Assembly (NCBI GenBank): GCA_965277685.1
Contig: OZ255830.1
Location: 1,385,367-1,449,366, forward strand
DNA length: 64,000 nucleotides
DNA from: Alphaproteobacteria bacterium
Lineage (GTDB): Bacteria; Pseudomonadota; Alphaproteobacteria; GM7ARS4; CBDIDI01
Direction: 5' to 3'
Below the pieces are notes generated by a model. The model was given only the letters and a program-made list of their open reading frames with translations, was not told where the DNA came from and did no database searches. This document shows positions 4,616 to 58,620 of this stretch, in pieces. Position 1 is the stretch's first letter, and every line of letters begins with the position of its first letter. Both the position numbers and the translations under genes were made by a program.

Positions 4616-5800
4616 ATGAACGGAAAAAATGATGTCGTAATCGTATCGGCGGCACGCACGCCAATCGGCTCCTTTCTTGGTGGATTATCGGGGCAGAGTG
4701 CGCGCAAATTAGGCGCGGCGGCCATCACCGGGGCGCTGTCGCGGGCAAACATTGCGGCGGATACCGTCGATGAGGTTATCATGGGGCAGGTCATTACGGC
4801 GGCCTGTGGTCAAAATCCGGCGCGCCAGGCGGCGATTGATGCCGGCATCCCCCAGGAAAGAACGGCCATGACGGTCAATCAGGTTTGCGGATCCGGATTG
4901 CGCGCGGTTGCTCTTGCCGCACAGGCCATTGCCCTTGGCGATGATGATGTTGTGGTTGCCGGGGGGCAAGAAAGCATGAGTTTATCTCCGCACGCGGCCT
5001 ATTTGCGGACAGGGCGTAAAATGGGGGATATGAAATTTACCGACACGATGATTCGAGACGGTCTTTGGTGTTCGTTTAACGACTATCATATGGGTTTGAC
5101 GGCCGAAAACGTTGCCCGCCGGTGGAAGTTGTCCCGTGATGACCAAGATCGTTTTGCCGTTCATTCGCAAAACAAAGCGGAAAAGGCGCAAAAAGATGGA
5201 AAATTCAACGATGAAATCATTCCCTTTACGGTAACGCACCGCAAGGGTGAAACGATCATCAAGGATGATGAATACCCGCGCCATGGCACCGATATGAACA
5301 CGATGGCCAAGCTTCGCGCTGCCTTCGATCGTGAAGGTACGGTGACGGCGGGTAACGCGTCCGGCCTTAACGATGGCGCGGCGGCATTGGTTATGATGTC
5401 TCGGAACGTGGCGGAAAAACGTGGAATCGCCCCGATGGCATCGATTGTTTCATGGGCCAGTGCCGGGGTCGATCCGGCATTGATGGGAACGGGCCCTATC
5501 CCGGCCAGCCGCAAGGCTTTGGAAAAAGCCGGGTGGGGTGTTGACGAACTTGATCTGATTGAGGCGAACGAAGCGTTCGCGGCGCAGGCATGCGCCGTCA
5601 ATAAAGAAATGGGATGGGATCAAGAAAAGGTCAACGTCAATGGCGGTGCTATTGCCCTTGGTCATCCGATCGGTGCTTCCGGCGCGCGTGTCCTTGTCAC
5701 TCTCGTGCACGAAATGGGCCGACGTGATGCCAAAAAAGGCCTTGCTACTTTGTGTATCGGTGGCGGAATGGGCATTGCCGTGTGTATTGAACGCCGCTAG
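4616..5800 (+). CDS. phaA: acetyl-CoA acetyltransferase (beta-ketothiolase)
   Basis: Thiolase N-terminus [14 protein letters not shown]. Active-site regions [10 protein letters not shown] and [11 protein letters not shown]. 394 aa. Sits directly upstream of phaB. Confidence 0.9.
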
Positions 5801-6697: not shown

Positions 6698-7238
6698 TGC
6701 TTTAGCCATCGGGAATGCACCCGGCGTGGTTCACGCTGCCCCGTGGATCATGCTGCCTTCGTTCATGTTGCCCCCGTTTACGCTGCCCCCCCCGTTCACG
6801 TTGCCCATGCGTTTGATGTTTCCGTGTCCGGTGTTTTGGGTGTGATGTTGGAAAATGCGGATAAGGTCGCGAACGGGTATGGTTTGCGGCCATTCGATCG
6901 GGGGCGAGGCCGCTCGGATTTTCCTTAGCCGCCCTTTTTTAGCTACCTATTTTTAGTCATTGGGTCTTTAGCCATCGGGAATGCACCCGGCGTGGTTCAT
7001 GTTGCCTCCGTTCATGTTGCCCCCGTTTACGCTGCCCCCCGTTCACGTTGCCCATGCGTTTGATGTTTCCATGTCCGGTGTTTTGGGGGTGATGTTGAAA
7101 AATGCGGATAAGGTCGCGAACGGGTATGGCTTGCGGCCATTCGATCGGGAGCGAGGCCGCTCGGATTTTCCTTAGCCGCCCTTTTTTAGCTACCTATCTT
7201 TAGTCATTGAGGCTTTAGCCATCGGGTCCTTAGCCGCC
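6698..7238. repeat. two tandem copies of a ~270-bp module, with an internal 12-nt sub-repeat (gttca[ct]gttgcc) in each
   Basis: Copy 1 (~6698-6968) and copy 2 (~6969-7238) align with only a few substitutions. Each carries a conserved small ORF ending ...VHVAHAFDVS[V/M]SGVLGVML[E/K]NADKVANGYGLRPFDR[G/E]RGRSDFP. Confidence 0.85.
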
Positions 7239-9519: not shown

Positions 9520-9699
9520 TCGATCCATGGTGCGGCGGAAGTCTCTTGGCGAAAAAAAGAAGCCCGAGTCTCGCTCGGGCCGTCATGGCGGTGGGGCTAC
9601 GGTGAAAAACACGCATAGCAATCCATCCCATCGGTCAAAGGGCAAGGCGGAAGAGGTAAAATCCAATGAACGGGGTGGGCCATCCGGCCCGGAGCCGAC

Positions 9700-9868
9700 C
9701 CGGTATGGTGATTGGGAATACAAGGGACGTTGCATTGATTTTTGACCTTAACCGATCCGGTATGGCGATTGGGAATACAAGGAACGTTGCATTGATTTTT
9801 GACCTTAACCGATCCGGTATGGTGATTGGGAATACAAGGGACGTTGCATTGATTCTTAACCTTTTTTG
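9700..9868. repeat. three tandem copies of a ~57-bp unit (ccggtatggtgattgggaatacaagggacgttgcattgatttttgaccttaaccgat)
   Basis: Copies differ by 1-3 substitutions. Intergenic, downstream of the rodZ-like gene. Confidence 0.9.
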
Positions 9869-18983: not shown

Positions 18984-20411
18984 TCAATAAAGGACCAACA
19001 CCTGTAAATCGGCGACATTGGTGCCGGTATCACCGGTCATGATTAAATCATCGGATGCCATAAGGGCCGGATGGGAATCATTAAGGATAAGTTTTTCACG
19101 GGGATCGATCTTGGCGTCTTTCATGCGGGTAAGGGTGGCGTCATCGACGATGGCACCGGCTGCGTCGGTTGGCCCGTCCCGGCCATCGGTGCCGCCGGAT
19201 AAAAAGACGTATCGGGTTAAGCCGGCCTTTTCGGCCTCGATGGCAAAGGCCAGGGCCATTTCCTGATTACGCCCGCCTTTGCCGCGCCCGCGCAGGGTGA
19301 CCGTGGTCTCGCCACCGCCAATGACCATGGCCGGGTGGGGGATGTCCTTGTATTGGGCGACCAATTTTTGGGCGGCATTCCGGGCCTCGCCGGTGATCGG
19401 TTCCGGATGAATGATGGGCCTGCCGTGGGATTTTTCCACCTTTTCCGCCATTGCCCTAATACTGGTGCGATTGGATGCGATGATGGTGGTTTTGATGACG
19501 TTGGCAAAGGTCGGATCATCCGCCGTGGGCGTTTCGTCAATGGCACCGTCAATACCACGAATCAAGTGGAGATAAACACTCCCAGGTAACTTATCCAACA
19601 ATTCGTATTTTTCGATGATATCCCAGGCATCTCGATAGGTACTGGGGTCGGGTGACATTGGGCCGCTGGCAATGGTGGACGGGTCATCGCCGACGACGTC
19701 GGAGATAATAAGAACGACCGATTGGGCCGGGTGGCAGGCCCGGGCCAGGCGACCGCCCTTGAAGGCGGATAGATGCTTGCGGACGATATTGACTTCCCTA
19801 ATATCGGCGCCGCAGGCAAGAAGTTCCTCCGTCGTTTTGATCTTGTCGGGAAGGGTCACCCGCCTGGCCGGGGAGGCGGCCAGGGCACTGCCGCCGCCGG
19901 ATAAAAGGACGAGGCATAAATCATCCTCGGTTGCCGCTTGGGCTTGCTTTAACAGTGCGTTGGCCCCTCTAACGCTTTCTTGATTGGGAATTGGATGTCC
20001 CGCTATAATCGAGCCGATACCAATATTCATGAAATCATGTCGGACGATGGTCTGTGTTGTCGGTAAATTGCTATCTTTGCAAATGGGAACAACTGTTTTG
20101 GCCATGATACCGGCGGCTTTGCCAAGGGCAAGGATATGAACCCTTTTGACGCTTTTCAGGGGGGAATTTCTCTCTTTTCTTTGTTCAAATGGATCGCGTA
20201 ATGCTGAAATCATGGCATTGATACCGGTGGCTCCGCTAAGGGCAAGGATATCAGCCATTCTGACGTCTCTCGGGATGGAATTGCTTTCTTTTAGTTGTTT
20301 AAATAGATCGAGTAATGGGAAGATCATGGCATTTCTTGGATCGGCGGTACGCACCCCGACATCAAAGATTCGCTCGGCCGCAAGGCGGGACAAGAAGACG
20401 GGGTTACTCAT
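18984..20411 (-). CDS. glycerate 2-kinase (MOFRL/DUF4147 family, TtuD/GckA-like)
   Basis: MOFRL-family signature GGGETTVTLRGRGKGGRNQEMALAFAIEA plus an N-terminal DUF4147-like region. 475 aa. Confidence 0.8.
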   Translation of the reverse strand: MSNPVFLSRLAAERIFDVGVRTADPRNAMIFPLLDLFKQLKESNSIPRDVRMADILALSGATGINAMISALRDPFEQRKERNSPLKSVKRVHILALGKAAGIMAKTVVPICKDSNLPTTQTIVRHDFMNIGIGSIIAGHPIPNQESVRGANALLKQAQAATEDDLCLVLLSGGGSALAASPARRVTLPDKIKTTEELLACGADIREVNIVRKHLSAFKGGRLARACHPAQSVVLIISDVVGDDPSTIASGPMSPDPSTYRDAWDIIEKYELLDKLPGSVYLHLIRGIDGAIDETPTADDPTFANVIKTTIIASNRTSIRAMAEKVEKSHGRPIIHPEPITGEARNAAQKLVAQYKDIPHPAMVIGGGETTVTLRGRGKGGRNQEMALAFAIEAEKAGLTRYVFLSGGTDGRDGPTDAAGAIVDDATLTRMKDAKIDPREKLILNDSHPALMASDDLIMTGDTGTNVADLQVLVLY

Positions 20412-29061: not shown

Positions 29062-30333
29062 ATGACCTATAAATCACCATTCATGCGCCAAGCGCAAGAG
29101 CGGGGTTTTTTCCACCAATGCAGTGATGACGAAGGGATGGACGTGCTTCTTGCCGCCAATGGAGAGGGGCGCGCCAAAGATGGGCAAAAGAAAGGCCGAC
29201 CGATCGGTGCGTATGTCGGTTTTGACGGCACCGCTTCGTCATTGCATGTCGGTAATCTTGTATCGATCATGTTGCTGCGTTTGTTCCAGCGTTGCGGCCA
29301 TCGACCGATTGTTCTGCTGGGCGGGGGGACAACCAGGGTTGGCGATCCGTCCGGTAAGGAGGAAAGCCGTCGTCTGATCGGGCATGATGCGATCCGCGCG
29401 AATTTGGCATCTTTTTCCGAAACGTTTCATCGCTTCCTGGACTTTCGTGGGCCCAACGCGGCCATGGTGGTGGATAACGGCGAGTGGCTCGATAACCTTA
29501 ATCACTTGACGTTCTTGCGTGACATCGGTCGTCATTTTTCGATGAGCCGCATGTTAAGTCAAGATTCGGTTCGCCTGCGGTTGGAACGCGAGCAAAATCT
29601 ATCTTTTCTCGAATTCAATTATATGGTTTTGCAGGCGTATGATTTTCTTGAAGTTTCGCGCCGCAATATCTGTCCGATTCAAATGGGTGGCTCCGATCAA
29701 TGGGGCAATATTTTATGTGGAGTCGAGCTTGGACGAAGGGTCGATAACCGGCCTTTGTTTGCCTTGACGTGTCCTTTGATCGTGACGTCGGATGGACGCA
29801 AAATGGGTAAAACCGCCCGTGGGGCGGTATGGTTGGACGCGCAACGGACAAGCCATTGGGATTATTGGCAATTCTGGCGCAATGTTGCGGATGATGACGT
29901 ATCTCGGTTCTTGAAACTCTTTACCGATCTTGATGTGGATACCATTGATACCCTTTGCCGGGGCGATATCAATCAGGCTAAGAAAACCCTTGCGGATCAA
30001 GCAACGACCCTTTGCCATGGGTCGGATGCGGCGGCGGCCATTCGAAAACGGGCGGCCGAGGTTTTTGAAAAGGGTGGCCGTGGCGGCATGGGCATGACGG
30101 TGCCTGCGGGTGATATTGCCGATGGAATGTCGCTTTTTCGGCTTTTGAATCATTGTTCTTTGGCGGCATCCGGCGCGCAGGGGCGGCGTTTGGTGCGGGC
30201 CGGTGCGGTGCGGCTGAATGGGGAAAAAGTCCATGACGAGACATATGTTGTCGGCAAAACGGATTTTGCCGACGACGGGACTCTTCACCTGACCGTCGGC
30301 AAGAAGCAGCATCGTTTGCTGAAGATCGGGTGA
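29062..30333 (+). CDS. tyrS: tyrosyl-tRNA synthetase
   Basis: HIGH-type motif (GFDGTASSLHVGNLVSIMLL). KMSKS-type KMGKT. C-terminal S4-like domain. 423 aa. Confidence 0.9.
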   Translation: MTYKSPFMRQAQERGFFHQCSDDEGMDVLLAANGEGRAKDGQKKGRPIGAYVGFDGTASSLHVGNLVSIMLLRLFQRCGHRPIVLLGGGTTRVGDPSGKEESRRLIGHDAIRANLASFSETFHRFLDFRGPNAAMVVDNGEWLDNLNHLTFLRDIGRHFSMSRMLSQDSVRLRLEREQNLSFLEFNYMVLQAYDFLEVSRRNICPIQMGGSDQWGNILCGVELGRRVDNRPLFALTCPLIVTSDGRKMGKTARGAVWLDAQRTSHWDYWQFWRNVADDDVSRFLKLFTDLDVDTIDTLCRGDINQAKKTLADQATTLCHGSDAAAAIRKRAAEVFEKGGRGGMGMTVPAGDIADGMSLFRLLNHCSLAASGAQGRRLVRAGAVRLNGEKVHDETYVVGKTDFADDGTLHLTVGKKQHRLLKIG

Positions 30334-30610
30334 TTGGAATTTGCGCCCTTTAGGCATGATCCCCCCCCATGCCGATATGGACCATGCCGGTATGGAAAAG
30401 AATGGCCCGCTGCTGACGCTTGGGTGATTGGAATTTGCGCCCTTTAGGCATGATCCCCCCATGCCGATATGGACCATGCCGGTATGGAAAAGAATGGCCC
30501 GCTGCTGAAGCTTGGGTGATTGGAATTTGCGCCCTTTAGGCATGATCCCCCCATGCCGGTGGACCATGCCGGTGGCGATAAAATGGCCCGCCCATGGGTA
30601 TATGGGGGGA
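30330..30610. repeat. three tandem copies of a ~93-bp unit that begins at the tyrS stop codon; each unit has a poly-C tract (8/6/6 C) flanked by the inverted repeat ggcatg...catgcc
   Basis: Unit: gtgattggaatttgcgccctttaggcatgatcccccc(cc)atgccgatatggaccatgccggtatggaaaagaatggcccgctgctga[c/a]gcttgg. The tga of gggtgattgg is the tyrS stop and is re-copied in every unit. Confidence 0.9.
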
Positions 30611-33991: not shown

Positions 33992-36900
33992 ATGGGTGCA
34001 AATAATTCCCCCCTTGGCGCATCGGATGGAAAGCGCGCTCCCCTATTCGATGTCGAGCAACTGCGCGAAGGCGTGATCGATTCTGCCCGGGTGCCGCGGC
34101 CGATGCATATGCCGCGGGCAAAGCAGTCCCTGGCTTTGCTGCCCCCCGCATCGGCCGATTTGGCCACGGATCCGGCCATCCGCCCGACGATGCTTTGTGT
34201 CTTTGATCACTCCCCTTATCTGCGTTCTTTGATATGCCGCCATCCGGAAACGGTCAGGCAATTATTCACGGATGGCCCGAAATCCGTCCTACGTCAGATC
34301 ATGGGCGCGGTATCGGCCTTGCCGCCCGATACGCCAAAGCGGTCGGCGATGGCGGCACTGCGCCAATCCAAGCAACGGGCGGCGATAGCGATTGCCCTTG
34401 CCGATATATCGAAGATATGGGCATTGGATGACGTGACGTTGGCGTTAAGTCTATTCGCCGAGGCGGTTCTTGATAAAGCGGTGTCGATTTTATGCCGCGA
34501 TATCGCGGATAGTGATGAACAGGCAACGTTTTTGCGGGATTGTTACGTCCTTCTTGCGGTGGGAAAATTGGGTGGGGGTGAGCTTAACTATTCCAGCGAC
34601 GTCGATGTGATCGCCCTTTTTGATATTCCGCCCGATGACGCGCCCAATGATGCGCCCAATGACACGCACGGTGCGGGCAAGAAACGGCATTACCCGGATA
34701 TCAAGGGACAAGCCCCGATGCTGTTTTCCCGTTTGACTCGTGATCTCGTCCGGCTGATCGAGCAACGCACCGATGATGGTTACGTTTTGCGGGTTGATTT
34801 GCGGCTGCGTCCCGACCCGCTCTCCAGCAACCTTTGCGTGTCCCTGGACGGGGCGTTATCCTATTACGAGAGTGTCGGACAAAACTGGGAGCGCGCGGCG
34901 ATGATCAAAGCGCGTCCGATTGCCGGGAATAGAGAACTTGGCCGGCGTTTTATCGATCATTTGCAACCCTTTATCTGGCGGCGCAATCTTGATTTTGCCG
35001 CCATCCGCGATATTCAGTCAATCAAGCGTCAGATCGATGCGTCCCGCCCCGTTACCGGCAGGGGTACCGGTATGGGTATTGGCGGGGGTACCGGTATGGG
35101 TACTGGTAGGGGTACTGGCGGGGGTATGGGTGGTTCCGTTTCCGGACGGGAAGGCCCCGTTCCGGCGACGATGGATAAAAATGGCGATGCAGCACCATCT
35201 CCATTATCCGGATGGGATGTGAAATTGGGGCAGGGCGGCATTCGTGAAATTGAGTTCTTCGTCCAAACGCAACAACTGATCTATGGCGGGCATTATCCGG
35301 ATTTGCGCGTCTCTTCGACATGTGAGGGTTTGCGGCAATTGGTCAAGTTGGAAAGAATTGACCGCACGGCATATAACCGAATGCTCGAGGCCTATCACTT
35401 CTTTCGCCATCTTGAGCATCGCTTGCAGATGATTAACGATTGCCAAACCCATCGTTTGCCGACGACATTACCGCAAATCGAAAACCTGGCCCGTTTCCTC
35501 GGGTTTGGCAGTCGGGCCGCTTTCGAGCGTCGTTGCCATCGCCATCGCGATCGGGTGCAGACCATATACCGCGCTCTTTTTCGCCGGTCGGAACCCTTGG
35601 GCGCATCCGGCAGTCTTGTCTTTACCGGGGTTGACGATCATCCGGAAACCGTCGCCACCCTTGCGAAAATGGGTTTTTCCGATCCGGCCCATATCGGCGC
35701 GACCATCCGTCGCTGGCACCATGGGTGCTATCCGTCCACCCGTTCCGAGCACTCGCGCCAGTTGTTGACCGAACTTATTCCCGGCCTGCTTGAGGCCTTT
35801 TCCGATAGTGCCGATCCCCATACGGCGTTTACCGGATTTGATCGTTTTTTATCCTTATTGCCGGCCGGCGTGGCCCTGTTTAGTCTTTTCAGCGCCCGTC
35901 CGGTTTTGATCCGATTTCTTGCCTCGATCATGGGTAATGCGCCCCGTCTGGCCGAACGTCTGGCCCGCCGCCCGTTGCTTTTCGATCAGGTGATCCTGCC
36001 CGGGTTTTCGGATCCTTTGCCGACGTTCCAGGCAATGGCCGCCGATTTGGATCGGCGTTTGGCGGATTCGGAGGATTTTCCGCATCGTCTGGATGTGGCC
36101 CGTATTTGGGGTAAGGATCATAAATTCCGCTTGAACGTCCATCTTCTGTTTGACCGAATAGACGCAATCGAGGCAATGCCGGTCTATAGCGACCTTGCCG
36201 ATGTCCTGCTGCAAGGTCTTTTCCCCTGGTTGGAAAAAGAATTCATCCGTCAATATGGCGTTATCGAAGGCCATTCCCTCGCCATCGTCGGGATGGGTAA
36301 ATATGGCGGGCGCGAAATGCGGGCGGCATCGGATTTGGATATATTGATGATCTATGGCCCGGATGAAACAAAGCATAAGGGCAACGCCAGCGACTTGCCC
36401 GATTCGTTGTATTTCGTCCGTCTATCCCAGCGTTTTATCAATGCCGTTTCAGCCCATACGGCCGAAGGTGAACTATATACGGTCGATGGGCGATTGCGCC
36501 CTCTTGGTCGCGGGTCGGCCATTGCCTGCGGATTGGATGCTTTTTGCCGTTACCATCGCGAATCGGCTTGGGGTGTCGAACATATGGCATTGACCCGGTT
36601 TCGAATTGTTATCGCGCCGCCTGCGCTGCGCCGATCGTTAACGCATCATATCCGCCAGATTTTATGTCTGCCGCGGGATCGGGAAAAATTAGCCGTGGGG
36701 GCGCTTGATACACGAACGAAAATGGTGGCGGAACACGGCGGGCCAAGTCCCGATGATCGAGACGGTAAGAGTTTGCTGAAGGTCAAGCATATGCGCGGTG
36801 GAATCACCGATATCGAGTTCATTGTCCAATATTGGCAATTGATTCATGCGCACCGCCATCCCCGGGTTCTTTCCTGCAATACGCTGGATGCGATACGGCG

Positions 36901-37765: not shown

Positions 37766-37955
37766 CCGCGCAGGCCCCCATCCATTATCGTGACGCGGTT
37801 GCCAACCCGAATTAAGGCGCAGGCCCACCGATTATCGTGACGTGGTGGCCGACCGCATTAAGGCGCAGGCCGATCCATTATCGTGACGTGGTTGCCGACC
37901 GGATTAAGGCGCAGGCCCACCGATTATCGCGACGTGGTGGCCGACCGGATTAATC
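37766..37955. repeat. ~4 tandem copies of a ~46-bp unit (ggcgcaggcccaccgattatcgtgacgtggtggccgaccggattaa); the last copy is the apt 3' end plus stop codon
   Basis: Units end in ccggattaa. The apt terminus on the opposite strand is ...ccggattaa tcggcgac, with TTA = TAA stop at 37950-37952. Confidence 0.85.
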
Positions 37956-38465
37956 GGCGACTTTCAATAATGATTCCAAGGGTATATCAAGATTGGCGCG
38001 GGCACCAAGGGCGGTCAGTTCAATGATAGAGGCCGCCGCAACGGGCATCGTTTTTGCTTTGATCAGCACGCAAATCGCGGCCTGCATCGTCCCGCCGGTC
38101 GCAATCAGATCGTCGACGACAACAAGTCGCCCCCCGGTCGGGGCAATGCCGGTTTGCACCTCGATCGTGTCTTGTCCGTATTCCAGATCATAGTGATGGC
38201 GGATAAGATCGCCCGGAAGTTTGCCCTTTTTCCGTATCATTAAGATTCCGCATCCAAGCCGTTCCGCCAAGGGGGCGGCGACAAGGAAACCCCGCGCCTC
38301 AATGGCGGCCAACATATCGGGACGATAGGGGGCAATGCACTCTTCCATCCGGTCGAGGGTCTTTTTCCAAGCGGCCCCGTTGGCGATAAGGGTCGCGATA
38401 TCGTAGAACAGTATGCCTTTCTTGGGAAAGTCGCGAATCTGGCGCAGGTGTTTCTTAATATCCAT
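37950..38465 (-). CDS. apt: adenine phosphoribosyltransferase
   Basis: MDIKKHLRQIRDFPKKGILFYDI. PRPP-binding motif VVVDDLIATGGT. ~171 aa. Confidence 0.9.
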   Translation of the reverse strand: MDIKKHLRQIRDFPKKGILFYDIATLIANGAAWKKTLDRMEECIAPYRPDMLAAIEARGFLVAAPLAERLGCGILMIRKKGKLPGDLIRHHYDLEYGQDTIEVQTGIAPTGGRLVVVDDLIATGGTMQAAICVLIKAKTMPVAAASIIELTALGARANLDIPLESLLKVAD

Positions 38466-38545
38466 TGATCGAAATATCCACATATCTTGCCATCGGCAAG
38501 AACAATTATCGCATGCCCCATCATATCAATCGAGTGGAATGACGT

Positions 38546-38620
38546 CCATCACCAAGGTTCGTGATTTGCCCGCATGACCTCTTTCATCACCAAGGTTCGT
38601 GATTTGCCCGCATGACGTCT
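38546..38620. repeat. 37-bp tandem duplication (catcaccaaggttcgtgatttgcccgcatgac[c/g]tctt x2) between apt and clpA
   Basis: Direct reading. Confidence 0.85.
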
Positions 38621-38691
38621 TCCCTTCGGATATTTTTTTCCGGACATGGGGTCGATGGTGGGCAAAAGAAGGGCCCGTATCGATCCAATGC

Positions 38692-41639: not shown

Positions 41640-41880
41640 GTCCGCCCGGGATGTTTGCCCCGGGTTTTTGCCCCGGGTTTTTGAGCGGGATGCCATCCGG
41701 TGCCATCGATGCGCGGGCCGGTGTAATCCGGGCCGGCGTAATGCGATCCGATGCCATCGATGCGCGGGCCGGCGTAATCCGGGCCAGCGTAATCCGATCC
41801 GATGCCATCGATGCGCGGGCCGGCGTAATCCGATCCGGCGTAATCCGATCCGGCGTAATCCGATCCGATGCAATCAATGC
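41640..41880. repeat. tandem arrays upstream of clpS: ccccgggtttttg x2, then ~3 copies of a ~57-bp unit (ccatcgatgcgcgggccggcgtaatccgggccagcgtaatccgatccgatg) with a nested ggcgtaatccgatcc sub-repeat
   Basis: Direct reading. Translates on the minus strand into [15 protein letters not shown]..., which is not a real protein. Confidence 0.85.
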
Positions 41881-43458: not shown

Positions 43459-43727
43459 TGATGCCCTCTTGATGCCCTCTTGATGCCCTCTTGATGCCCA
43501 CTTGATGATGGATGCCGGATGGGCGCCGATGGATTGTTTGCCGGTGGTGTCTTCTTGATGATGCCCACTTGATGCCCACTTGATGATGGATACCGGATGG
43601 GCGCCGATGGATTGTTTGCCGATGGTGTCTTCTTGATGATGCCTTCTTGATGCCCTCTTGATGATGGATACCGGATGGGCGCCGATGGATTGTTTGCCGA
43701 TGGTGCTTTCTTGATGATGCCCACTTG
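43424..43727. repeat. ~3.5 tandem copies of an ~85-bp unit whose first copy is the dacA-like 3' end including its TGA
   Basis: Gene end gccgggatggattgtttgccgattgcgccttcTTGAtgatgccc. Units gcgccgatggattgtttgccg[ag]tggtg[tc][ct]ttcttgatgatgccc[at]cttgatgccc[at]cttgatgatggataccggatgg. Confidence 0.85.
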
Positions 43728-44198
43728 GATACATGCGACGGCGGTAATGAAACCGGTCGATAGCGGTATGGCTCACCGCCCGTTTGCGGCGGATGGAAAA
43801 GCGGGCAGAGTCATGATACGGGCCATAATACGGGCGGATAAGTCGTGGGCCAATTGTCGTGGGGCCAATTAAGGAAAAATGCCATGGCGGCGGCAAGAAT
43901 GCACGGGTGGAACGGAGAGTTTCGAATAATCGACGGTGGTAATTGAATATGTATTTTTCCTATCCCATATTACTTCAAATGTTACTCAGTGTTATGGCAG
44001 GATGGAACGATGGTTTTTAGGATGATTCGAAGATTGGTTGCTTTGTTCGATAAGCGGCTATATTCTCACGGCTCTTTGTCTGTCTTTTTCTTTTGGGTAC
44101 GCACTTTTGAACAAACTGACCTTAGGTTGCGGGGGCGTATGGGCGGCACGGACTAGTGCGCCAATTCTTTTTGTATCAAGAATATCGGGAAAGAATCT

Positions 44199-46178: not shown

Positions 46179-47249
46179 TTGATTGCGGTGGATATGGGTG
46201 AAAAGCAACAAGATGGGCCGTCATCCAGGCAACAATCCGGGCGTTCGCCGGGCGTTCGTCCGGATGGTGATCCCGTTGATGGGTGGGTTTCGGCAATCGT
46301 TGCCGGTGATCGCAAGACATTGGCCAAGGTTATCACCCTTATCGAATCGAGCCGCGACGACCATCGCGCTTTGGCTCAGAAGATTCTTCTTTCCATTCTT
46401 GATCGTAAATCGTCACCCGACACCTTGCGGGTCGGCATTACCGGGCCTCCCGGGGCCGGGAAATCCACCCTTATCGAAGCCCTTGGCCAGTTGGCGGTGG
46501 CGCATGGTCGGCGCGTTTGCGTTCTGGCGGTGGATCCTTCGTCGCGCCGTTCGGGGGGGTCTATTCTTGGTGATAAGACCCGAATGGAAGAATTATCGCG
46601 CTCTGACCGGGCGTTTATCCGTCCCTCTCCAAGCGGATTAACCCTTGGCGGAATTGCCCGGCATACGTTCGAGACGATTTTGTGCTGTGAAGCGGCGGGA
46701 TATGATCTGATTATGATTGAAACGGTTGGCGTTGGACAATCGGAAACCGCCGTTTATGACGTCAGTGATATGTTTTTTCTTGTTCTTCCACCGGCATCCG
46801 GCGATGGCTTGCAAGGCATCAAAAAAGGTATTTTGGAAGTTGCCGATATGATTGCCGTCAATAAGGCCGATGGTGATTTGCGCTCGGCCGCGGGCCGGGC
46901 CGCCGCCGATTATGGGCGGGCTATGCATGTGATGCCGCCGTCTCGTCCGGGTTGGTCGGTGCCGGTTGATATGGTGTCGGCCCTTGGTGGCGAAGGTATC
47001 GATCGATTATGGAAACATATGGTGCGTTTTGGACAATTGCGCCGATCCGACGGTGCTTTGTCCCGGCTTCGTTCCGAACAATCGGTGGCGGCAATGTGGG
47101 CCGAAATTCGCGAACGGATCGGCGTTCGCATAAATGCCGGTGACAAAACCGGCGGATTGGAAGAAAAGGTATTTCGGATGGAAATGCTTCCGGCCCAGGC
47201 GGCCGAGCGGATTGAGGAACGGTTTTTTTCGGCGAAAGACGACCGGTGA
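46179..47249 (+). CDS. meaB: methylmalonyl-CoA mutase-associated G-protein chaperone MeaB/ArgK
   Basis: Walker A GITGPPGAGKST. G-domain motifs (IETVGVGQSE, NKAD). ArgK-type C-terminal helices. The N-terminus may begin at an internal start. Confidence 0.85.
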   Translation: MIAVDMGEKQQDGPSSRQQSGRSPGVRPDGDPVDGWVSAIVAGDRKTLAKVITLIESSRDDHRALAQKILLSILDRKSSPDTLRVGITGPPGAGKSTLIEALGQLAVAHGRRVCVLAVDPSSRRSGGSILGDKTRMEELSRSDRAFIRPSPSGLTLGGIARHTFETILCCEAAGYDLIMIETVGVGQSETAVYDVSDMFFLVLPPASGDGLQGIKKGILEVADMIAVNKADGDLRSAAGRAAADYGRAMHVMPPSRPGWSVPVDMVSALGGEGIDRLWKHMVRFGQLRRSDGALSRLRSEQSVAAMWAEIRERIGVRINAGDKTGGLEEKVFRMEMLPAQAAERIEERFFSAKDDR

Positions 47250-47316
47250 TCAAAAAAGATGCTTGACCGTTATCATTTGTTTTGTCACAAAGCGGCTGAC
47301 GGGCAAGCCTTCCAGG

Positions 47317-47490
47317 CACGTTATTTGTGCACGGAAGCAAGCCGAGAGAACCCAAGCAAGGGAAGTGTTCCATGACCAGATATTGCGAATTGACCGGCCG
47401 GACACGTTGTTTGTGCGGGGAAGCGGGCCACGAAAACCCAAGCAAGGGAATTGCCCCATGACCAGATGTTGCGAATTGACCGGTATGAAG
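47317..47490. repeat. ~87-bp tandem duplication covering the rpmB Shine-Dalgarno (aaggga), ATG and first ~9 codons
   Basis: Copy 1: gttatttgtgcacggaagcaagccgagagaacccaagcaagggaagtgttccATGACCAGATATTGCGAATTGACCGGcc. Copy 2: gttgtttgtgcggggaagcgggccacgaaaacccaagcaagggaattgccccATGACCAGATGTTGCGAATTGACCGGta. Confidence 0.85.
47372..47461 (+). CDS. 29-codon upstream ORF (MTRYCELTGRTRCLCGEAGHENPSKGIAP) derived from the duplicated rpmB start; its TGA overlaps the rpmB ATG
   Basis: ATG 47372 is preceded by aaggga. It reads through copy 2 in the +1 frame relative to rpmB and stops at TGA 47459-47461; the rpmB ATG is 47458-47460 (A-TG-A overlap). Whether it is translated is unknown. Confidence 0.35.
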   Translation: MTRYCELTGRTRCLCGEAGHENPSKGIAP

Positions 47491-47745
47491 GTTGCTGTCG
47501 GTAATAATGTCAGCCATGCCAATAATAAAACCAAGCGCCGCTTCCACCCTAATCTGCAAAAGATTTCTTTTTTCTCGGATCTGTTGAAAGAACGTATTTC
47601 GCTACGCGTTTCCGTTCGGGCATTGCGGATGGTGGAACGCAGTGGCGGTATTGATCGCTGGTTATCGGCGGCAAGTGATGCAGGATTAAGCAAGGTCGCG
47701 TCCCGACTTAAACGTCGTATCCGACAAAAAACACCGGCCGCTTAA
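47458..47745 (+). CDS. rpmB: 50S ribosomal protein L28
   Basis: MTRCCELTGMKVAVGNNVSHANNKTKRRFHPNLQKISFFSDLL...SVRALRMVERSGGIDRWL, colinear with bacterial L28 (95 aa). Embedded in the longer ORF-track frame 47134..47745. Confidence 0.9.
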   Translation: MTRCCELTGMKVAVGNNVSHANNKTKRRFHPNLQKISFFSDLLKERISLRVSVRALRMVERSGGIDRWLSAASDAGLSKVASRLKRRIRQKTPAA

Positions 47746-47893
47746 GGCGGGTGATCACACAGGGACAGCATTCCGGTGCGGTGTTATGTTGTTCATGGTG
47801 CAATTCCGGTCGATTTCTTTGATGCCTGAAGGGCGTTATTTGCGATGATATGGCCGATCATCCGATTCCATCCATATCGTGTAACGCCTAAAA

Positions 47894-49285
47894 ATGTTTG
47901 AGTGGGGCGTGCTTTTTGTGCCGTTGTGCTTTGCTGCGGCATTTTTTTACGGTCGGCGTCTGGCCCATGCGCGTTCCGGTTCACATATCCGCAATCTTTG
48001 TGCCAATCCCTTTTATCACGGTTTTTATCTTGCCCTGACCACGACGCTATGGGTGACGGTGTTCCTTGTCTGTTATGGACAGATTGTCGATATCTTTCGC
48101 CATGATTATGTTTTTTCCCTATTGCCCGGCGATGTCCAAGCACTCGGGTATGATCACCGCAGTTTGGTCACCAGCCGGATAGAGGATATCGCATCGATGG
48201 TCGGAGCGGGCATTCCGCCATCGGCAGATACAAAGGATTGGATGCATGATGGTGCCGTTGCGTTACACGAATTCAATGCCTATTTGCACGGATGGAAGAT
48301 CGTTCTTTCGCTTGGTTTGTATCTGATTGCGTTCATTGTCTTCTCGCGCTTGATCAGCCAACGATTCAATGCCCGGATTCGGGTGGAACGGATCGTGCGG
48401 GTTCTTTTGTTTTTTTGCGCTTGCGTGGCGGTGGCCGGTACTTTCGGCATTGTTTTCTCCATGCTTTTCGAGGCCATTGCCTTTTTCAAGGTCGTCCCTC
48501 TGCAGGATTTTTTATTCGGAACGGTCTGGGATCCGCGTTTTCAAGAAGCGGGCGACAGTGGGGCGTCCGGTGGAAATTTCGGGCTTTTGCCATTGTTGTG
48601 GGGAACGGTTTATATTTCTTTTGTCGCGATGCTGATCGCCGGCCCGATTGGGTTGATGGCGGCGGTGTTTCTTTCCCAATATGCGTCCAAACGCTGGCGC
48701 GCTTTTGCCAAGCCGGCATTGGAGATTCTCGCCGGTATACCGACGGTGGTCTATGGTTTTTTTGCCCTTGCCTTTGTCGGTCCGTTTCTGCACATTTTCG
48801 GCCAGACGATCGGGGTCGAGATCGGAACGACAAGTGTCATCGTGGCCGGTTTGGTGATGGGGGTGATGATTATTCCCTATGTATCCAGTTTATCGGAAGA
48901 TATTTTATCGGCGGTACCGCGTACTTTGGCCGAAGGCTCGGCCGCCCTTGGCGCAACCGGTAGTGAAACGATTTGCAAGGTTCTTATCCCGGCCGCGCTT
49001 CCCGGCATTGTCGCCGCTTTTGTTCTGGCTTTTTCCAGGGCCATCGGCGAAACGATGATTGTCGTGATGGCGGCCGGTATTGCGGCACGATTATCGCTTA
49101 ACCCGTTTGAATCTCTGACGACCATCACGGTCAAGATCGTTTCGCAATTGACCGGTGATCTTGAATTTGACACACCGCAGACGCAGGTTGCCTTTGCCCT
49201 TGGTTTGGTACTCTTCGTATTGACTTTTGTGATGAATATTTTTGCCCTGCGGATTGTTCGTAAATATCGCTTGCGATACGAATAG
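47894..49285 (+). CDS. pstC: phosphate ABC transporter permease PstC (long form)
   Basis: Polytopic permease with the ABC EAA-type loop (SRAIGETMIVVMAAG). First gene of the pstCAB-phoU unit. 463 aa. Confidence 0.85.
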   Translation: MFEWGVLFVPLCFAAAFFYGRRLAHARSGSHIRNLCANPFYHGFYLALTTTLWVTVFLVCYGQIVDIFRHDYVFSLLPGDVQALGYDHRSLVTSRIEDIASMVGAGIPPSADTKDWMHDGAVALHEFNAYLHGWKIVLSLGLYLIAFIVFSRLISQRFNARIRVERIVRVLLFFCACVAVAGTFGIVFSMLFEAIAFFKVVPLQDFLFGTVWDPRFQEAGDSGASGGNFGLLPLLWGTVYISFVAMLIAGPIGLMAAVFLSQYASKRWRAFAKPALEILAGIPTVVYGFFALAFVGPFLHIFGQTIGVEIGTTSVIVAGLVMGVMIIPYVSSLSEDILSAVPRTLAEGSAALGATGSETICKVLIPAALPGIVAAFVLAFSRAIGETMIVVMAAGIAARLSLNPFESLTTITVKIVSQLTGDLEFDTPQTQVAFALGLVLFVLTFVMNIFALRIVRKYRLRYE

Positions 49286-49292
49286 AAGGCCG

Positions 49293-50654
49293 ATGATGTT
49301 GAAAAACCCCATTAAGAATCATGAAAAAGAGATGCTTTCTCGTCGGCATCGAGCGGAACGCCGGTTCCATTTTTTTGGATTTTCCTCGGTATGCGTATCA
49401 TTTGCTTTTCTGGCGGCGCTTTTGGTTGTGTTGATGGCGCGCGCGATTCCGGCGTTTGTCGAGATACGTGTCGGGTTGGATATCACCCCGGATATGATAA
49501 GGGTGGTGTTGGATAAATTCCCGCCCCATGCGCGCCCGGCGGTTGATGCCCTTAGCGACCGGGACTATACGCAAATTCTGCGCCGGTCTTTGACCCAGGT
49601 CCTTGGCGCGGATCATATCAAAGGGCGCCAAGAAAAACGTCGTCTTTACGCTTTGTTGTCGGCCGGTGTCGGGCAAAGCGTTCGTGATGCGATGAAAAAA
49701 AGGATCGATCGCGATCATCATCCTTTGGTTGATGGGGCCGTTGATGGGGAGGAGGATCTTTCTTTCCTGCGTCATTCAAAGCGTTTCTGGGTGCCGCTTA
49801 GCGCCGATGCGGAAGATGTCCTTAAGGGGAGTGTTGACCTCGATCTTCCCGAAACCCGCAGGCGCTTGAAGGATGATCAACTGCGATGGTTGCGTGTTCT
49901 GGAAGATCAAGACCGGATAAGCCGCCGGTTTAATTGGACATTGTTTGAAAATGGCGCTTCCAATTATCCGGAACTGTCCGGAATTGGTGTGGCCGCGATC
50001 GGATCATTGATGATGATGATGGTGGTCTTGGCATTGACTCTTCCCCTTGGTGTCGGCAGTGCCATTTATCTTGAGAAATTCGCACCGGATAATCGATGGA
50101 CTCGTTTTGTTGAAATCAATATCAATAACCTGGCTGCGGTACCGTCGATTATTTTCGGTATTTTGGGCTTGTCCTTTTTTATCAACTTTGTCGGGTTGCC
50201 CAGATCCGCTCCGATCGTCGGTGGGCTGGTTTTAACCTTGATGACGCTTCCGGTTGTTATTGTTGCGGCGAGGGCCGCAATCAAGGCCGTTCCTTCTTCG
50301 ATCCACGAGGCCGCCTTGTCCGTTGGCGCATCGCATATGCAGGCGGTTTTTTATCATGTTTTGCCTTTGGCTTTCCCCGGTATTATGACCGGGACAATTA
50401 TCGGGTTGGCGCGCGCCTTGGGCGAGACGGCACCATTGTTAATGATCGGTATGGTGGCCTTTGTGACCGAATACCCACGTTCTATTTTTGAACCGGCCAC
50501 GGCTTTGCCGGTTCAGGTATATATGTGGGCCGGGGCGGCGGAACGGGCCTTTGTCGCGCGCACGGCGGCGGCGATTATCGTGTTGCTCGTTTTTCTTCTT
50601 TTAATGAATGCGACGGCAATCTATCTGCGCCATAAATACGAACGAGACATATGA
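49293..50654 (+). CDS. pstA: phosphate ABC transporter permease PstA
   Basis: Permease with the EAA loop ([18 protein letters not shown]). Start chosen at ATGATG 49293, just after the pstC stop. Its TGA overlaps the pstB ATG. Confidence 0.85.
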
Positions 50655-53808: not shown

Positions 53809-53963
53809 ATGATGTGTTCCTGATGGCTGGATTTTCTTGGGGCGGCGGGTAAGACCCCCCATGCGTGCGCGCGGCGCGCAAACGCCAACCCCACAAGCAC
53901 AAGGCACCCGAACCGATGCGCTAGCACCGTATCAAAATGCCTTTCTCCGGCACGGTTGTCAAC

Positions 53964-54112
53964 GATGCGATGGCCGATGTTATCCTAGGGGGGCCGATGT
54001 GATGACCGACGCGATGGGCGATGGGATGACCGATGTTATCCTAGGGGGGGCCGATGTTATCACCGACGCGATGGGCGATGGGATGACCGATGTTATCCTA
54101 GGGGGGGGCGGT
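53964..54112. repeat. ~2.5 tandem copies of a ~60-bp unit (gatgcgatgggcgatgggatgaccgatgttatcctaG(6-8)ccgatgt[gt]at[gc]accgac) with a poly-G tract of 6, 7 and 8 in successive copies
   Basis: Direct reading. Intergenic, between the hupE 5' end and the ABC-2 permease 3' end. Confidence 0.85.
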
Positions 54113-56009: not shown

Positions 56010-58352
56010 ATGAAAAGGCACTATCGGACGATGACGGCGATCGCCGCGGCCGCTTTTTTGGCTTTTTGCCAAATCTTTTTTCCTTTATCACTCTCGGCCG
56101 GAAATATCGGGGATGCGTACGGGGATGTATCGTCGGTCTCGCTGATTGCGGCAAGCGAAGGGATTGCCCCGGGGCAAAAACGGGTTCTGGCCGGATTGCG
56201 GATAACCCTTGGGCCGGGATGGAAAACATACTGGCGCGCACCGGGGGATGCGGGGTTTGCTCTTTCTGCCAAGTGGACCGATAACGATAATATTCGGGAT
56301 ATCACGATCGAATGGCCGGCACCGCGTCGCTACAGCGAATACGGGTTGGAAACAATCGGCTATGAAAAAGATGTGACCCTTCCCGTAAAACTGACTCTGG
56401 CCGATCCGGGTCGGGCCGCGACGATCGGCGCCACCGTCGATTACCTGGTGTGCAAGGATGTGTGCATACCGAAATCGGCCCCCGTTTTTTTATCCTTACC
56501 GGCACTGGCCGCGCCGATGCCATCGCCGATGGCTCCGATTATTGAAGCCGCCCTCGATCGGGTGCCGCCGATGGCATCGGATGATTTGCGGATTGAAAAA
56601 GCACTCTGGCAAGCGGATGGGGTGCTGGAAATCGACGTGTCAAGCACGACGGCCATGGGTTCCCTTGATGCCTTTATCGAAGATGCCGGTGATATCTCTT
56701 TTCCGGCTCCGCAGATACGCTTTATGCATGATGGGTATCGGGCGTTGCTTCGCTTTCAGGCAAGGAAACCGGTGCAATCTTCCCCGCTTGGCCGTGTGAT
56801 AAGGGTGACTGTTGTCGATATGCCGGGCCAAGCGGATCGATCCGATCTTGATGCGGATCGCTTGCAATCGGTGGCCTGGCGCAGTGCTTCGGATATGGTC
56901 ACCGTGACCGGGACACCCGTTCGCGGTGGGGGCGGATTCCACCCGACGATGACGTTTTCCGGAATTTTATGGATGATGTTGCTGGCGGTCATCGGGGGTT
57001 TGATCCTTAACGTCATGCCGTGTGTTTTGCCGGTGTTATCGCTGAAATTGATGACGGTCGTTAACGCCCAACAAAGAAAAGGGCAAAGAGAGGGGCAAAG
57101 GGAAAGACCAAGGGACAGACAGGAAGAAAAGGATGGCGGGGACGAGAAAGCATGTGAGGGGGAGAAAGCCGCGCGTCCCGCAATGCATTCCGGCGGCGTG
57201 GCAATATGGACTAAATCCCTTTTTTCGAGGGGCGAGAAAGCCGCGCGTCCCGCGATCCATTCCGATGCCGTGGCAATACGGACTAAATTCCTTTTTTCGG
57301 TGGCGGGAATTTTGGTTTCTTTCATGCTTTTGGCATTGGCCCTGATTGTCTTTCGCGCGGCCGGATATGCCGTGGGTTGGGGGTTCCATTTCCAGTCGCC
57401 GGTATTCCTCGCTTTGATGGGGGCAATGATGACGATCTTTGCTTCATCGATTATTTTGGATGCGCCATTGCATTTGCCCGGATGGCTTTCCCAACGGCTT
57501 TCCCGCCATCCTGCCGATGGGAATGATCGGCACGGCGGGGCATTTATCCAGGGTATGTTCGCCGTGGCATTGGCAACCCCTTGTTCGGCACCGGTTATCG
57601 GAACCGTGGCCGGATTCGCTTTATCCCGCGGCGCGATTGATATTCTTTTGATCTTCCAAGCGATGGCATGGGGTTTTGCTTTGCCGTGGTTGGTGATTGC
57701 CGCGTTTCCGCGTTTGATTTTTCTATTGCCGAAACCGGGCCGATGGATGCGGGCGATACAGTGGGGTTTGGCCGTTGCATTGTTGTTGACGGTGGTATGG
57801 TTGATTTTTGTGATCATTGCCCAGCGAGGCGGCGGTGTTGCGGCCGTGGTCGCGCTGGGATGTGTGTTTCTCTTTTTCTTGCCGGTGCTGGTGCGCCGTT
57901 ATGTTTATGCCTTGATGATCGCGATTGTGGTGGCCATCGGCGCGGTGCCCTTTGTCCATGATGGGGCTCAAGATGGGCAAAAACGGGTGGCGGCAGCCGG
58001 CATTTGGTCGCCCCTTGATCCGGAACGAATCCCAATTTTAGTCGATCAAGGGCGCGTCGTTCTGGTCGATGTTACTGCCGATTGGTGCATCACGTGTCAA
58101 ATCAATCATCTTTTGGTTCTGGATCGGGATGCAACCCGGCGCATGCTTGATGATTTTAATGTCGTTGCCATGCGCGGTGACTGGACTTTGCCCGATGATC
58201 AAATTGCCGCTTTTCTTGCCGGGTTTCAGCGCTATGGGGTACCATTCAACGCCGTCTACGGACCCGGGGCAAAGGATGGCATTGTTTTGTCGGAAATCCT
58301 GGATCAAGACGATTTGCATGCGGCATTGGTCGCTGCATCAAGGCCAAAATAA
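56010..58352 (+). CDS. dsbD: thiol:disulfide interchange protein DsbD family (N-terminal periplasmic domain, TM core with two Cys, C-terminal thioredoxin CxxC)
   Basis: TM Cys pair (VMPCVLPVLSL and ATPCSAPVIG). C-terminal thioredoxin VDVTADWCITCQIN. Charged ~70-aa insertion containing a 69/71-bp tandem duplication in the first cytoplasmic loop. Confidence 0.8.
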   Translation: MKRHYRTMTAIAAAAFLAFCQIFFPLSLSAGNIGDAYGDVSSVSLIAASEGIAPGQKRVLAGLRITLGPGWKTYWRAPGDAGFALSAKWTDNDNIRDITIEWPAPRRYSEYGLETIGYEKDVTLPVKLTLADPGRAATIGATVDYLVCKDVCIPKSAPVFLSLPALAAPMPSPMAPIIEAALDRVPPMASDDLRIEKALWQADGVLEIDVSSTTAMGSLDAFIEDAGDISFPAPQIRFMHDGYRALLRFQARKPVQSSPLGRVIRVTVVDMPGQADRSDLDADRLQSVAWRSASDMVTVTGTPVRGGGGFHPTMTFSGILWMMLLAVIGGLILNVMPCVLPVLSLKLMTVVNAQQRKGQREGQRERPRDRQEEKDGGDEKACEGEKAARPAMHSGGVAIWTKSLFSRGEKAARPAIHSDAVAIRTKFLFSVAGILVSFMLLALALIVFRAAGYAVGWGFHFQSPVFLALMGAMMTIFASSIILDAPLHLPGWLSQRLSRHPADGNDRHGGAFIQGMFAVALATPCSAPVIGTVAGFALSRGAIDILLIFQAMAWGFALPWLVIAAFPRLIFLLPKPGRWMRAIQWGLAVALLLTVVWLIFVIIAQRGGGVAAVVALGCVFLFFLPVLVRRYVYALMIAIVVAIGAVPFVHDGAQDGQKRVAAAGIWSPLDPERIPILVDQGRVVLVDVTADWCITCQINHLLVLDRDATRRMLDDFNVVAMRGDWTLPDDQIAAFLAGFQRYGVPFNAVYGPGAKDGIVLSEILDQDDLHAALVAASRPK
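57159..57300 (+). repeat. in-frame ~70-bp tandem duplication inside dsbD (encodes EGEKAARPAMHSGGVAIWTKSLFSRG / EKAARPAIHSDAVAIRTKFLFS)
   Basis: gagaaagccgcgcgtcccgc[a/g]at[g/c]cattccg[gc]...gtggcaata[tc]ggactaaat[c/t]cc(t)tttttcg repeated. Confidence 0.85.
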
Positions 58353-58620
58353 TCCATCGGCATGGGTCGCTGCATCACGGCCAAAATAATCCATCGGCAT
58401 GGGTCGCTGCATCACGGCCAAAATAATCCATTGGCATTGGTCGCGGTCGTTATGGCGCGGCTAAGATTCCGCCCGGGTTGCCCCGGGATGACGTGCAAGG
58501 TTGCGTCCGGATGCCCCGAAATGGCTCCAAAATTGCATCAAGGAAATTGCGCTGGGATGCCCTGAAATAGCCCCGGAATTGCATCAAGGAAATTGCATCG
58601 AGAGAATTGCGGGGCCGGGA
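58323..58620. repeat. two adjacent tandem arrays after dsbD: ~3 copies of a ~40-bp unit containing the dsbD stop (cggccaaaaTAAtccatcggcatgggtcgctgcatca), then 2 copies of gaaat[ga]gc[tc]cc[ag][ag]aattgcatcaaggaaattgc
   Basis: Direct reading. The first unit is the dsbD 3' end (...AASRPK*). Confidence 0.85.

Follow-up and report, generated by a model that had tools for sequence, protein, structure and literature searches.

A tandem duplication at the start of rpmB creates a 29-codon upstream open reading frame whose stop codon overlaps the rpmB start codon

Why does the gene for ribosomal protein L28 (rpmB) carry a second copy of its own start region immediately upstream, and does the short open reading frame created by that copy regulate the gene? 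The question arises from one 64-kb stretch of alphaproteobacterial DNA, which we call the window. A preliminary description of this locus had suggested that the upstream copy could be a leader-peptide or autoregulatory device.

The repeat consists of two contiguous direct copies of 86 nt that lie head to tail in the same orientation with no spacer between them, giving a total array of 172 bp. The features of the array and of the two open reading frames that start in it are as follows:

47312 to 47397, + strand: tandem copy 1, 86 nt, containing most of the 5' leader, a Shine-Dalgarno (SD) motif, an ATG and the first 26 nt of rpmB-like coding sequence
47358 to 47363, + strand: SD-like AAGGGA of the upstream open reading frame (uORF), 8 nt ahead of the ATG at 47372, with the same sequence and spacing as the rpmB SD
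47372 to 47461, + strand: uORF, 29 codons plus TGA, with the translation MTRYCELTGRTRCLCGEAGHENPSKGIAP and then the stop, ending Pro-UGA-C
47398 to 47483, + strand: tandem copy 2, 86 nt, containing the working rpmB SD, start codon and codons 1-9
47444 to 47449, + strand: SD-like AAGGGA of rpmB, within uORF codons 25-26 (AAG GGA)
47458 to 47745, + strand: rpmB, ribosomal protein L28, 95 aa, matching Pfam Ribosomal_L28 with E = 6.6e-23

Ungapped alignment of copy 1 with copy 2 showed that 72 of the 86 positions are identical (84%), and Tandem Repeats Finder (TRF) described the array with a period of 86, 1.9 copies, 85% matches, 0% indels, and a score of 250. The preliminary description was correct that a direct repeat exists but gave its copies as ~87 bp long; both the alignment and TRF set the period at 86 nt, and the blocks that had been proposed for alignment, 47317-47403 and 47404-47490, are one base out of register. 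Copy 1 and copy 2 differ at 14 unit positions, namely 3, 5, 12, 20, 21, 28, 29, 33, 34, 37, 54, 57, 58, and 71, and 11 of these changes are transitions. The duplication of the SD, the start codon and nine codons can be read directly from the sequence, as can the motif common to both copies, cccaagcaaggga-N8-ATGACCAGAT[A/G]TTGCGAATTGACCGG, both as described earlier. In each copy the SD-like motif has the form AAGGGA-N8-ATG with the same sequence and spacing, and a 16-nt block, AACCCAAGCAAGGGAA, is identical in the two copies. When the rpmB start region was compared with its own upstream DNA, the local similarity score was 34 here and no higher than 11 in 81 other rpmB loci. The repeat at the rpmB start is far beyond chance.

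The two ATG codons in the array differ in what follows them. Position 1 of the Pfam Ribosomal_L28 profile falls at residue 3 of the protein read from the downstream ATG, so that this ATG (47458) is the true rpmB start, as had been proposed. Codons 1-9 of the uORF are those of L28 except for C4Y. Its translation confirmed the frame-shifted 29-codon reading frame that had been reported, with a TGA at 47459-47461 that overlaps the rpmB ATG at 47458-47460 as ATGA, a -4 overlap between co-directional open reading frames. This overlap of stop and start is automatic because the period of 86 equals 3x28+2 and an A follows the ATG (codon 2 of L28 starts with A). A ribosome coming from the first ATG meets the second one base late and reads TGA. 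The sole further requirement for the overlap is that 20 out-of-frame codons contain no stop, and a random 20-codon stretch is open with P = 0.60 in this window. Similarly, the Pro-UGA-C at the end of the uORF is no sign of design because it is fixed by the rpmB sequence CC-ATG-ACC. An open reading frame on the opposite strand (47250-47693) had no family match and we take it to be spurious.

We examined how widely the duplication is distributed, beginning from the L28 protein. A search of 5.8 billion protein clusters yielded 2174 homologues, all PF00830, among which the sole close relative (P0002) has 74% identity and every other has less than 60%. The contig that carries this relative, L081, comes from the Logan assembly of SRR25758456 and has the gene order dxs, meaB, rpmB, pstC, pstA, which is the same as in the window. 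Its meaB-rpmB spacer is 63 nt long and contains one SD (GAAGGGA), one ATG, and no tandem repeat. The preliminary description had proposed comparing rpmB upstream regions for the presence of the duplication, and this comparison found it in neither L081 nor 80 further alphaproteobacterial rpmB loci (0 of 81); a uORF with a stop overlapping the start codon was likewise found at 0 of these 81 loci. In the JGI metagenomes, a degenerate DNA pattern for MTR[CY]CELTG gave three chance matches, none of them L28.

The divergence between the copies gives an indication of age. Four-fold degenerate sites differ between the window and L081 at 65% (JC about 1.5), whereas copy 1 and copy 2 have diverged by a JC distance of 0.18 over the whole unit and of 0.29 at the positions that appear to be free, those belonging to neither the SD nor the coding part. 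Divergence between the copies is far smaller than that between the window and L081, suggesting that the duplication is much younger than the split from L081, yet not recent. From comparison with this single close relative, in which the region is single-copy, the duplication is to all appearances a derived, lineage-specific state.

We wished to determine whether copy 1 bears the mark of selection. In its SD and from its ATG to the end of the copy, 1 of 32 positions differs from copy 2, compared with 13 of 54 elsewhere. Against a uniform null this deficit of changes has P = 0.0085, as expected from the functional constraint on copy 2. Under a fair null, in which copy 2 is frozen and copy 1 drifts at half the pairwise rate, P = 0.089. 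With the constraint on copy 2 taken into account, the shortage of substitutions thus falls short of significance, and selection on copy 1 was set aside as an explanation. At ~0.13 substitutions per site per copy, the chance survival of the six SD and three ATG bases is about 0.3 and, together with the P value under the fair null, this makes neutral persistence adequate. These numbers leave room for weak selection or gene conversion acting on the SD, ATG, codons 2-9, and open frame of copy 1. The single coding difference between the copies is TGT to TAT in copy 1; L081 has TGT, so that the change fits the loss of an L28-type constraint on copy 1. The SD, ATG, codons 2-9 and open frame of copy 1 have all survived the divergence that separates the copies.

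For the uORF to be translated, copy 1 would have to be on the rpmB mRNA. Upstream of both copies is a sequence that resembles a promoter:

47263 to 47291, + strand: promoter-like element, with a -35 of TTGACC (47263-47268), a 17-nt spacer, TG at 47283-84 and a -10-like CACAAA (47286-47291)

Two segments of this region, CTTGAC (47262-47267) and TTTGTCACAAAGCG (47281-47294), are common to L081 at an identical 19-nt offset. The L081 counterparts of CTTGAC and TTTGTCACAA[A/G]GCG are at 4858-4863 and 4877-4890, and the spacer that separates them has diverged. Local alignment of the promoter region of the window with that of L081 had a score of 23, compared to a shuffle mean of 12.8, and 0 of 500 shuffles reached this score. 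We infer from this conservation that the element acts as a promoter with a start near 47298. A generic sigma-70 scan of 47000-48000 called no promoter; the promoter-like element was missed because its -10 lacks the final T. The -10, CACAAA, is weak. No terminator-like site was found in the leader, including between the uORF and rpmB. The conserved promoter-like element precedes both copies, so that the rpmB mRNA probably includes them both.

Other candidates for control elements and repeat copies in this region were tried and rejected. The TTGACC in copy 1 (47390-47395) was considered as part of an internal promoter; 17 nt further on the sequence reads GTGCGG, which by eye has no -10 character. 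The position of pstC after rpmB suggested that the leader might contain a Pho box or a Zur box; by eye, there is one TGTCAC half-site, and L081 does not share its partner at 11-nt spacing. Smith-Waterman alignment of 47250-47311 with the copies did not support a third, degraded copy that extends into the promoter: the score was 14-15, the shuffle mean was 12-13, and 72-115 of 500 shuffles reached the score. Hints of such a copy, namely that TTGACCG occurs at the -35 and again in codons 6-8 and that the promoter and the unit each contain TTTGT, are taken as coincidence. The distance of 85 nt from the -35 to codon 7 in L081 is close to the 86-nt period and is also taken as coincidence.

An RNA-based device might be recognizable from its structure. 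An Rfam scan of the whole window at the gathering threshold gave 0 matches, and a permissive scan (E <= 10) of 47000-47900 gave three chance-level matches, all outside the repeat. Folding z-scores of the leader and of the single copies were +0.17 to +1.40, meaning that they are less stable than shuffled sequences. In the leader we found no significant fold, no alternative structures, and no regulatory codon runs, and outside the SD and coding bases the leader could not be aligned with that of L081. The predicted cost of opening the initiation region is 5.3-6.4 kcal/mol for the uORF and 9.2-9.3 kcal/mol for rpmB, about 3 kcal/mol higher. This gap is intrinsic to the two copies, with small hairpins predicted to pair the SD GGG and the AUG of copy 2. 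At 37 other gene starts in the window the median opening cost is 8.2 kcal/mol with an interquartile range of 6.0-10.5 kcal/mol, and both the uORF and rpmB are within the range of these starts. At the level of sequence and predicted folding, the uORF initiation site is intact, accessible and competent.

The rpmB array is not the only one of its kind in this DNA. Using a period >=30 and a score >=100 to define an array, the 64-kb window contains 16 distinct tandem arrays that together make up 2,793 bases, or 4.4% of the window. There are two such arrays in 84 comparator loci covering 433 kb, so that the window is ~54-fold denser. Comparison of all arrays against the 64-kb window with blastn-short showed that each is locally unique and that the rpmB unit has no copy elsewhere in it. 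On a crude ORF map, at least 10 arrays are between long ORFs, three are in-frame inside genes, and three are uncertain. In one in-frame example, 114 nt (38 residues) are duplicated at the N-terminus of a DUF4147/MOFRL glycerate-kinase-family protein, and the second copy alone aligns to the profile. The window spacers that are syntenic with L081 are all longer than their counterparts, two of them by 3- to 5-fold (740, 208, and 148 nt in the window compared with 162, 63, and 109 nt in L081). The rpmB array therefore belongs to a large set of lineage-specific tandem duplications and is one outcome of a general mutational habit. Because the genome is packed with similar tandem duplications, an accidental origin is the simplest reading of the rpmB case.

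We think it likely that the array is an accidental 86-bp tandem duplication that the -4 overlap made tolerable, and not a regulatory device. An old, lineage-specific duplication would have copied most of the leader and the SD, start, and first 26 coding bases of rpmB. Ribosomes probably initiate at 47372, given that the SD and its spacing are identical to those of rpmB and the predicted accessibility is at least equal. They would then translate 29 codons across the rpmB SD, which would open the ribosome-binding site of rpmB, and stop at Pro-UGA-C on its AUG, where some of them would reinitiate with the help of the internal SD. Reinitiation would be expected because natural gene pairs that overlap as ATGA behave in this way; 13 of 14 such pairs tested were strictly coupled (Huber et al. 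2019, PMC6728339), which bears out the earlier statement that the geometry is that of translational coupling. Direct initiation at the second SD probably goes on in parallel. By analogy with these pairs, termination-reinitiation probably supplies rpmB with ribosomes from the uORF, and the 29-residue peptide itself probably has no function and is a by-product. That the duplication was harmless enough to persist is most likely due to the -4 overlap. A duplication in frame would add 29 residues to L28, and the survival of the least disruptive frame points to a tolerance filter rather than to design.

This accidental origin has to be weighed against the possibility that the uORF is a selected leader that delivers ribosomes or regulates, with rpmB dependent on, or tuned by, its translation. 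The paucity of changes in the SD, ATG, and codons 2-9 of copy 1 is what selection would produce, yet it is not significant under the appropriate null. The rpmB start is predicted to be costlier to open than that of the uORF as a property of the copies themselves, but both energies are ordinary for genes of the window. The uORF ends with Pro-UGA, a context that a passage in PMC7246954, citing Hayes 2002 and Pierson 2016, reports to slow peptide release, but these bases are dictated by rpmB itself. Delivery of ribosomes by a uORF is a recognized idea (PMC12548453), but neither the closest relative nor any of the 80 other loci has the feature, the leader yielded no runs of regulatory codons, no terminator, and no alternative structures, and the excess of tandem duplications is a sufficient neutral origin. 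We consider a selected leader unlikely. It could take the form of an rpmB start that drifted into hairpins opened by the elongating ribosome, or of slow RF2 termination at Pro-UGA-C that gates reinitiation. A C-terminal proline is reported to slow release (in a passage of PMC7246954), making a pause on the rpmB start conceivable. It is similarly doubtful that the duplication has become entrenched, such that the output of rpmB comes largely from ribosomes that load at the upstream copy, the more open of the two, and pass to rpmB at the ATGA, with RF2 release at Pro-UGA-C setting reinitiation. The device proposed in the preliminary description fared poorly on these grounds: no relative has the duplication, no significant or conserved RNA structure, Rfam family, or terminator was found in the leader, the overlap follows from arithmetic, and copy 1 is compatible with neutral decay.

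The remaining explanations concern a silent start, a binding site for L28, and an artefact. The upstream start would be silent if the rpmB transcript began in or after copy 1 or if copy 1 were occluded, leaving the duplication as inert leader or spacer DNA. The promoter assignment is based on a pattern conserved in two genomes only, the generic scan saw no sigma-70 promoter, and the TTGACC in copy 1 could in principle serve as a -35. Nevertheless, the sequence at the -10 distance from that hexamer is unlike a -10, the sole element conserved with L081 is upstream of copy 1, and the start region of the uORF is predicted to be more open than that of rpmB; a silent start seems rather improbable to us. 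An autoregulatory leader that binds L28 as an rRNA mimic, present in two tandem copies, would be in keeping with the occurrence of such leaders in many ribosomal-protein operons and with the 16-nt block shared by the copies. However, the leader had no Rfam match at either threshold, its folding is no more stable than that of shuffles, and it could not be aligned with L081 outside the SD and coding bases. We found no precedent for such a leader; repression of E. coli rpmB-rpmG by L28 was considered and dropped, since the literature says the opposite: the operon does not respond to an excess of its products (Aseev 2016, according to passages in PMC10931766 and PMC7297116). We regard such a leader as very improbable. 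Least credible is an assembly or sequencing artefact, even though there is one assembly on record, in which the L28 and Dxs protein clusters have one member each on one 1,633,338-bp contig. An assembly error would yield identical copies and a long-read error would yield indels, whereas the copies here differ at 14 of 86 positions, mostly by transitions, with no indels, and the same window has 15 other diverged tandem arrays.

Short uORFs that act on a downstream gene have been described in other bacteria, and the Mg2+ transporter leader of Salmonella is reportedly an example in which a short uORF promotes the gene that follows. The rpmB uORF resembles these in being a short open reading frame in a 5' leader whose translation can promote initiation downstream; theirs are conserved and experimentally tested, whereas the rpmB uORF occurs in a single genome and is known from sequence. 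According to a review, short uORFs can deliver ribosomes to the downstream gene or open its ribosome-binding site (PMC12548453). Natural ATGA-coupled pairs share with the rpmB locus the geometry of stop and start, a downstream SD inside the upstream open reading frame, and an upstream open reading frame with its own SD and ATG. Unlike in those pairs, the upstream partner here is not a gene but a 29-codon, out-of-frame chimera of the start of the downstream gene, and its coupling is a prediction. The open reading frames of mycobacterial interspersed repetitive units (MIRUs) couple at -4 nt, an arrangement interpreted as allowing additional DNA at a start codon while the gene that follows is little affected (PMC12548453). 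Like the rpmB unit, MIRUs are units of tens of bases ahead of a gene, often in tandem, with a small open reading frame whose stop overlaps the start by 4 nt. MIRUs are dispersed and apparently mobile, whereas the rpmB unit is unique in the window and derived from the leader and codons of its own target; on both counts it falls outside the MIRUs.

Autoregulatory leaders of ribosomal proteins and arrest or attenuation leaders such as TnaC, ErmCL, and PheL are also located in the 5' leader, and the uORF ends with Pro-UGA as TnaC does. The rpmB leader differs from them in having no conserved structure, conserved peptide, or terminator and no relatives with the feature among the loci compared, and no L28 feedback is known in E. 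coli. We do not class it as a ribosomal-protein autoregulatory leader because structure and conservation are both lacking, nor, given that it has neither a conserved peptide nor a terminator, as an attenuation or arrest leader. In agreement with the preliminary description, we found no rpmB leader or uORF of this kind described in the literature. The components and the principle of the rpmB uORF are already known.

If the uORF is translated, it would be a clean natural example of a random tandem duplication that creates a new upstream open reading frame. It would show why the -4 overlap class survives ahead of an essential, highly expressed gene, by the same logic that has been proposed for MIRU insertions, and would be relevant to the birth of small open reading frames and to translational coupling. 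Were the duplication entrenched, a ribosomal-protein gene would have its output buffered by a decoy start site that arose from its own by tandem duplication. The present evidence reveals no new regulatory principle for ribosomal protein synthesis.

More unusual than the uORF is the very large number of tandem duplications of medium period that this genome carries. In Ehrlichia ruminantium, a genome-wide expansion of non-coding regions by tandem repeats has been reported (Collins 2005 and Frutos 2006, as summarized in a passage of PMC10710844). Both are cases of a small alphaproteobacterial genome with long spacers built by active tandem duplication, seen here as the arrays and lengthened syntenic spacers of the window. 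The organism is a different one, and the window has a G+C content of 54% with long ORFs covering about 85% of it on a crude ORF map.

We found that medium-period tandem repeats are very dense in the window, with 16 arrays in 64 kb; the other DNA examined, most of it alphaproteobacterial, has 2 arrays in 433 kb. These 16 arrays have periods of 36-247 nt, contain 2-4 copies and show 77-97% matches. Every one of them is locally unique and most are intergenic. Their positions in the window are:

1612-1767
3316-3386
6742-7226
9695-9863
20105-20333, (-), in the DUF4147/MOFRL gene
30317-30591
35053-35126
37768-37953
38547-38621, (-), upstream of a phosphoribosyltransferase gene
41695-41852
43481-43727
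47317-47483, at the start of rpmB
53963-54107
57156-57299
58321-58444
58509-58596

This pattern is reminiscent of Ehrlichia ruminantium, for which an expansion of spacers driven by repeats has been described. Comparison of the syntenic dxs-meaB-rpmB-pstC block with its counterpart on L081, the contig of the closest relative, showed that two spacers are 3- to 5-fold longer in the window, and each of these longer spacers holds a tandem array:

Window 43459-44198, 740 nt; L081 1614-1775, 162 nt
Window 47250-47457, 208 nt; L081 4863-4925, 63 nt

The second of these is the spacer ahead of rpmB, where the two copies of the 86-nt duplication meet in the palindrome CCGGCCGG (window 47394-47401). The left (TTCC|AGG) and right (CCGG|TATG) boundaries of the duplication share no microhomology, and thus it does not look like the product of slippage between short direct repeats. 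A search of the entire 64-kb window with Rfam returned no family at gathering score and no tRNA, rRNA or riboswitch.

Read back from the true start, the frame of L28 has no stop for 108 codons (47134-47457), crossing both copies and entering meaB at its 3' end. Because 17% of random 108-codon stretches in the window are also open, this is unremarkable. A consequence, though, is that a ribosome shifting by +1 within the part of the 29-codon upstream ORF that lies in copy 2 would give an N-terminally extended L28. The ATGA overlap between the stop codon of this ORF and the rpmB start is possible because residue 2 of L28 is threonine (ACC). In this lineage L28 begins with MTRCCELTGMK (window 47458-47490; L081 4926-4958), which carries Thr2, a Cys-Cys pair and Met10; in the other alphaproteobacterial L28 proteins, 80 in all, the N-terminus reads MS/MA-R-x-C-...-GK. 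Neither genome pairs rpmB, which stands by itself, with rpmG (window 47458-50654; L081 4926-8053); the genes immediately after rpmB are pstC-pstA, and pstS does not intervene.

Repeats also touch other genes in the window. An ORF at 18984-20411 (-), predicted to encode a DUF4147/MOFRL (glycerate-kinase family) protein, carries an in-frame 114-nt tandem duplication (20105-20333) that adds a repeat of 38 residues, 79% matching, at the N-terminus of the protein. The Pfam profile aligns from residue 70 only, which makes the first 38-residue copy an extra segment. Directly upstream of clpS, repeats of 13, 15 and 51 nt (41645-41867, (-)) lie 5' of the ClpS domain and give rise to a 258-codon ORF in which the ClpS match is limited to residues 175-253. 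The N-terminal extension of this ORF is probably generated by the repeats and not real protein. Upstream of the phosphoribosyltransferase gene (37950-38483) is a 38-nt unit present twice (38547-38621, (-)) with 97% matching, a repeat that is very recent. Within each unit lies a mini-ORF, ATG CGG GCA AAT CAC GAA CCT TGG TGA (MRANHEPW*), and TGATG comes after it. Here too, a duplication in a 5' leader multiplies start and stop codons.
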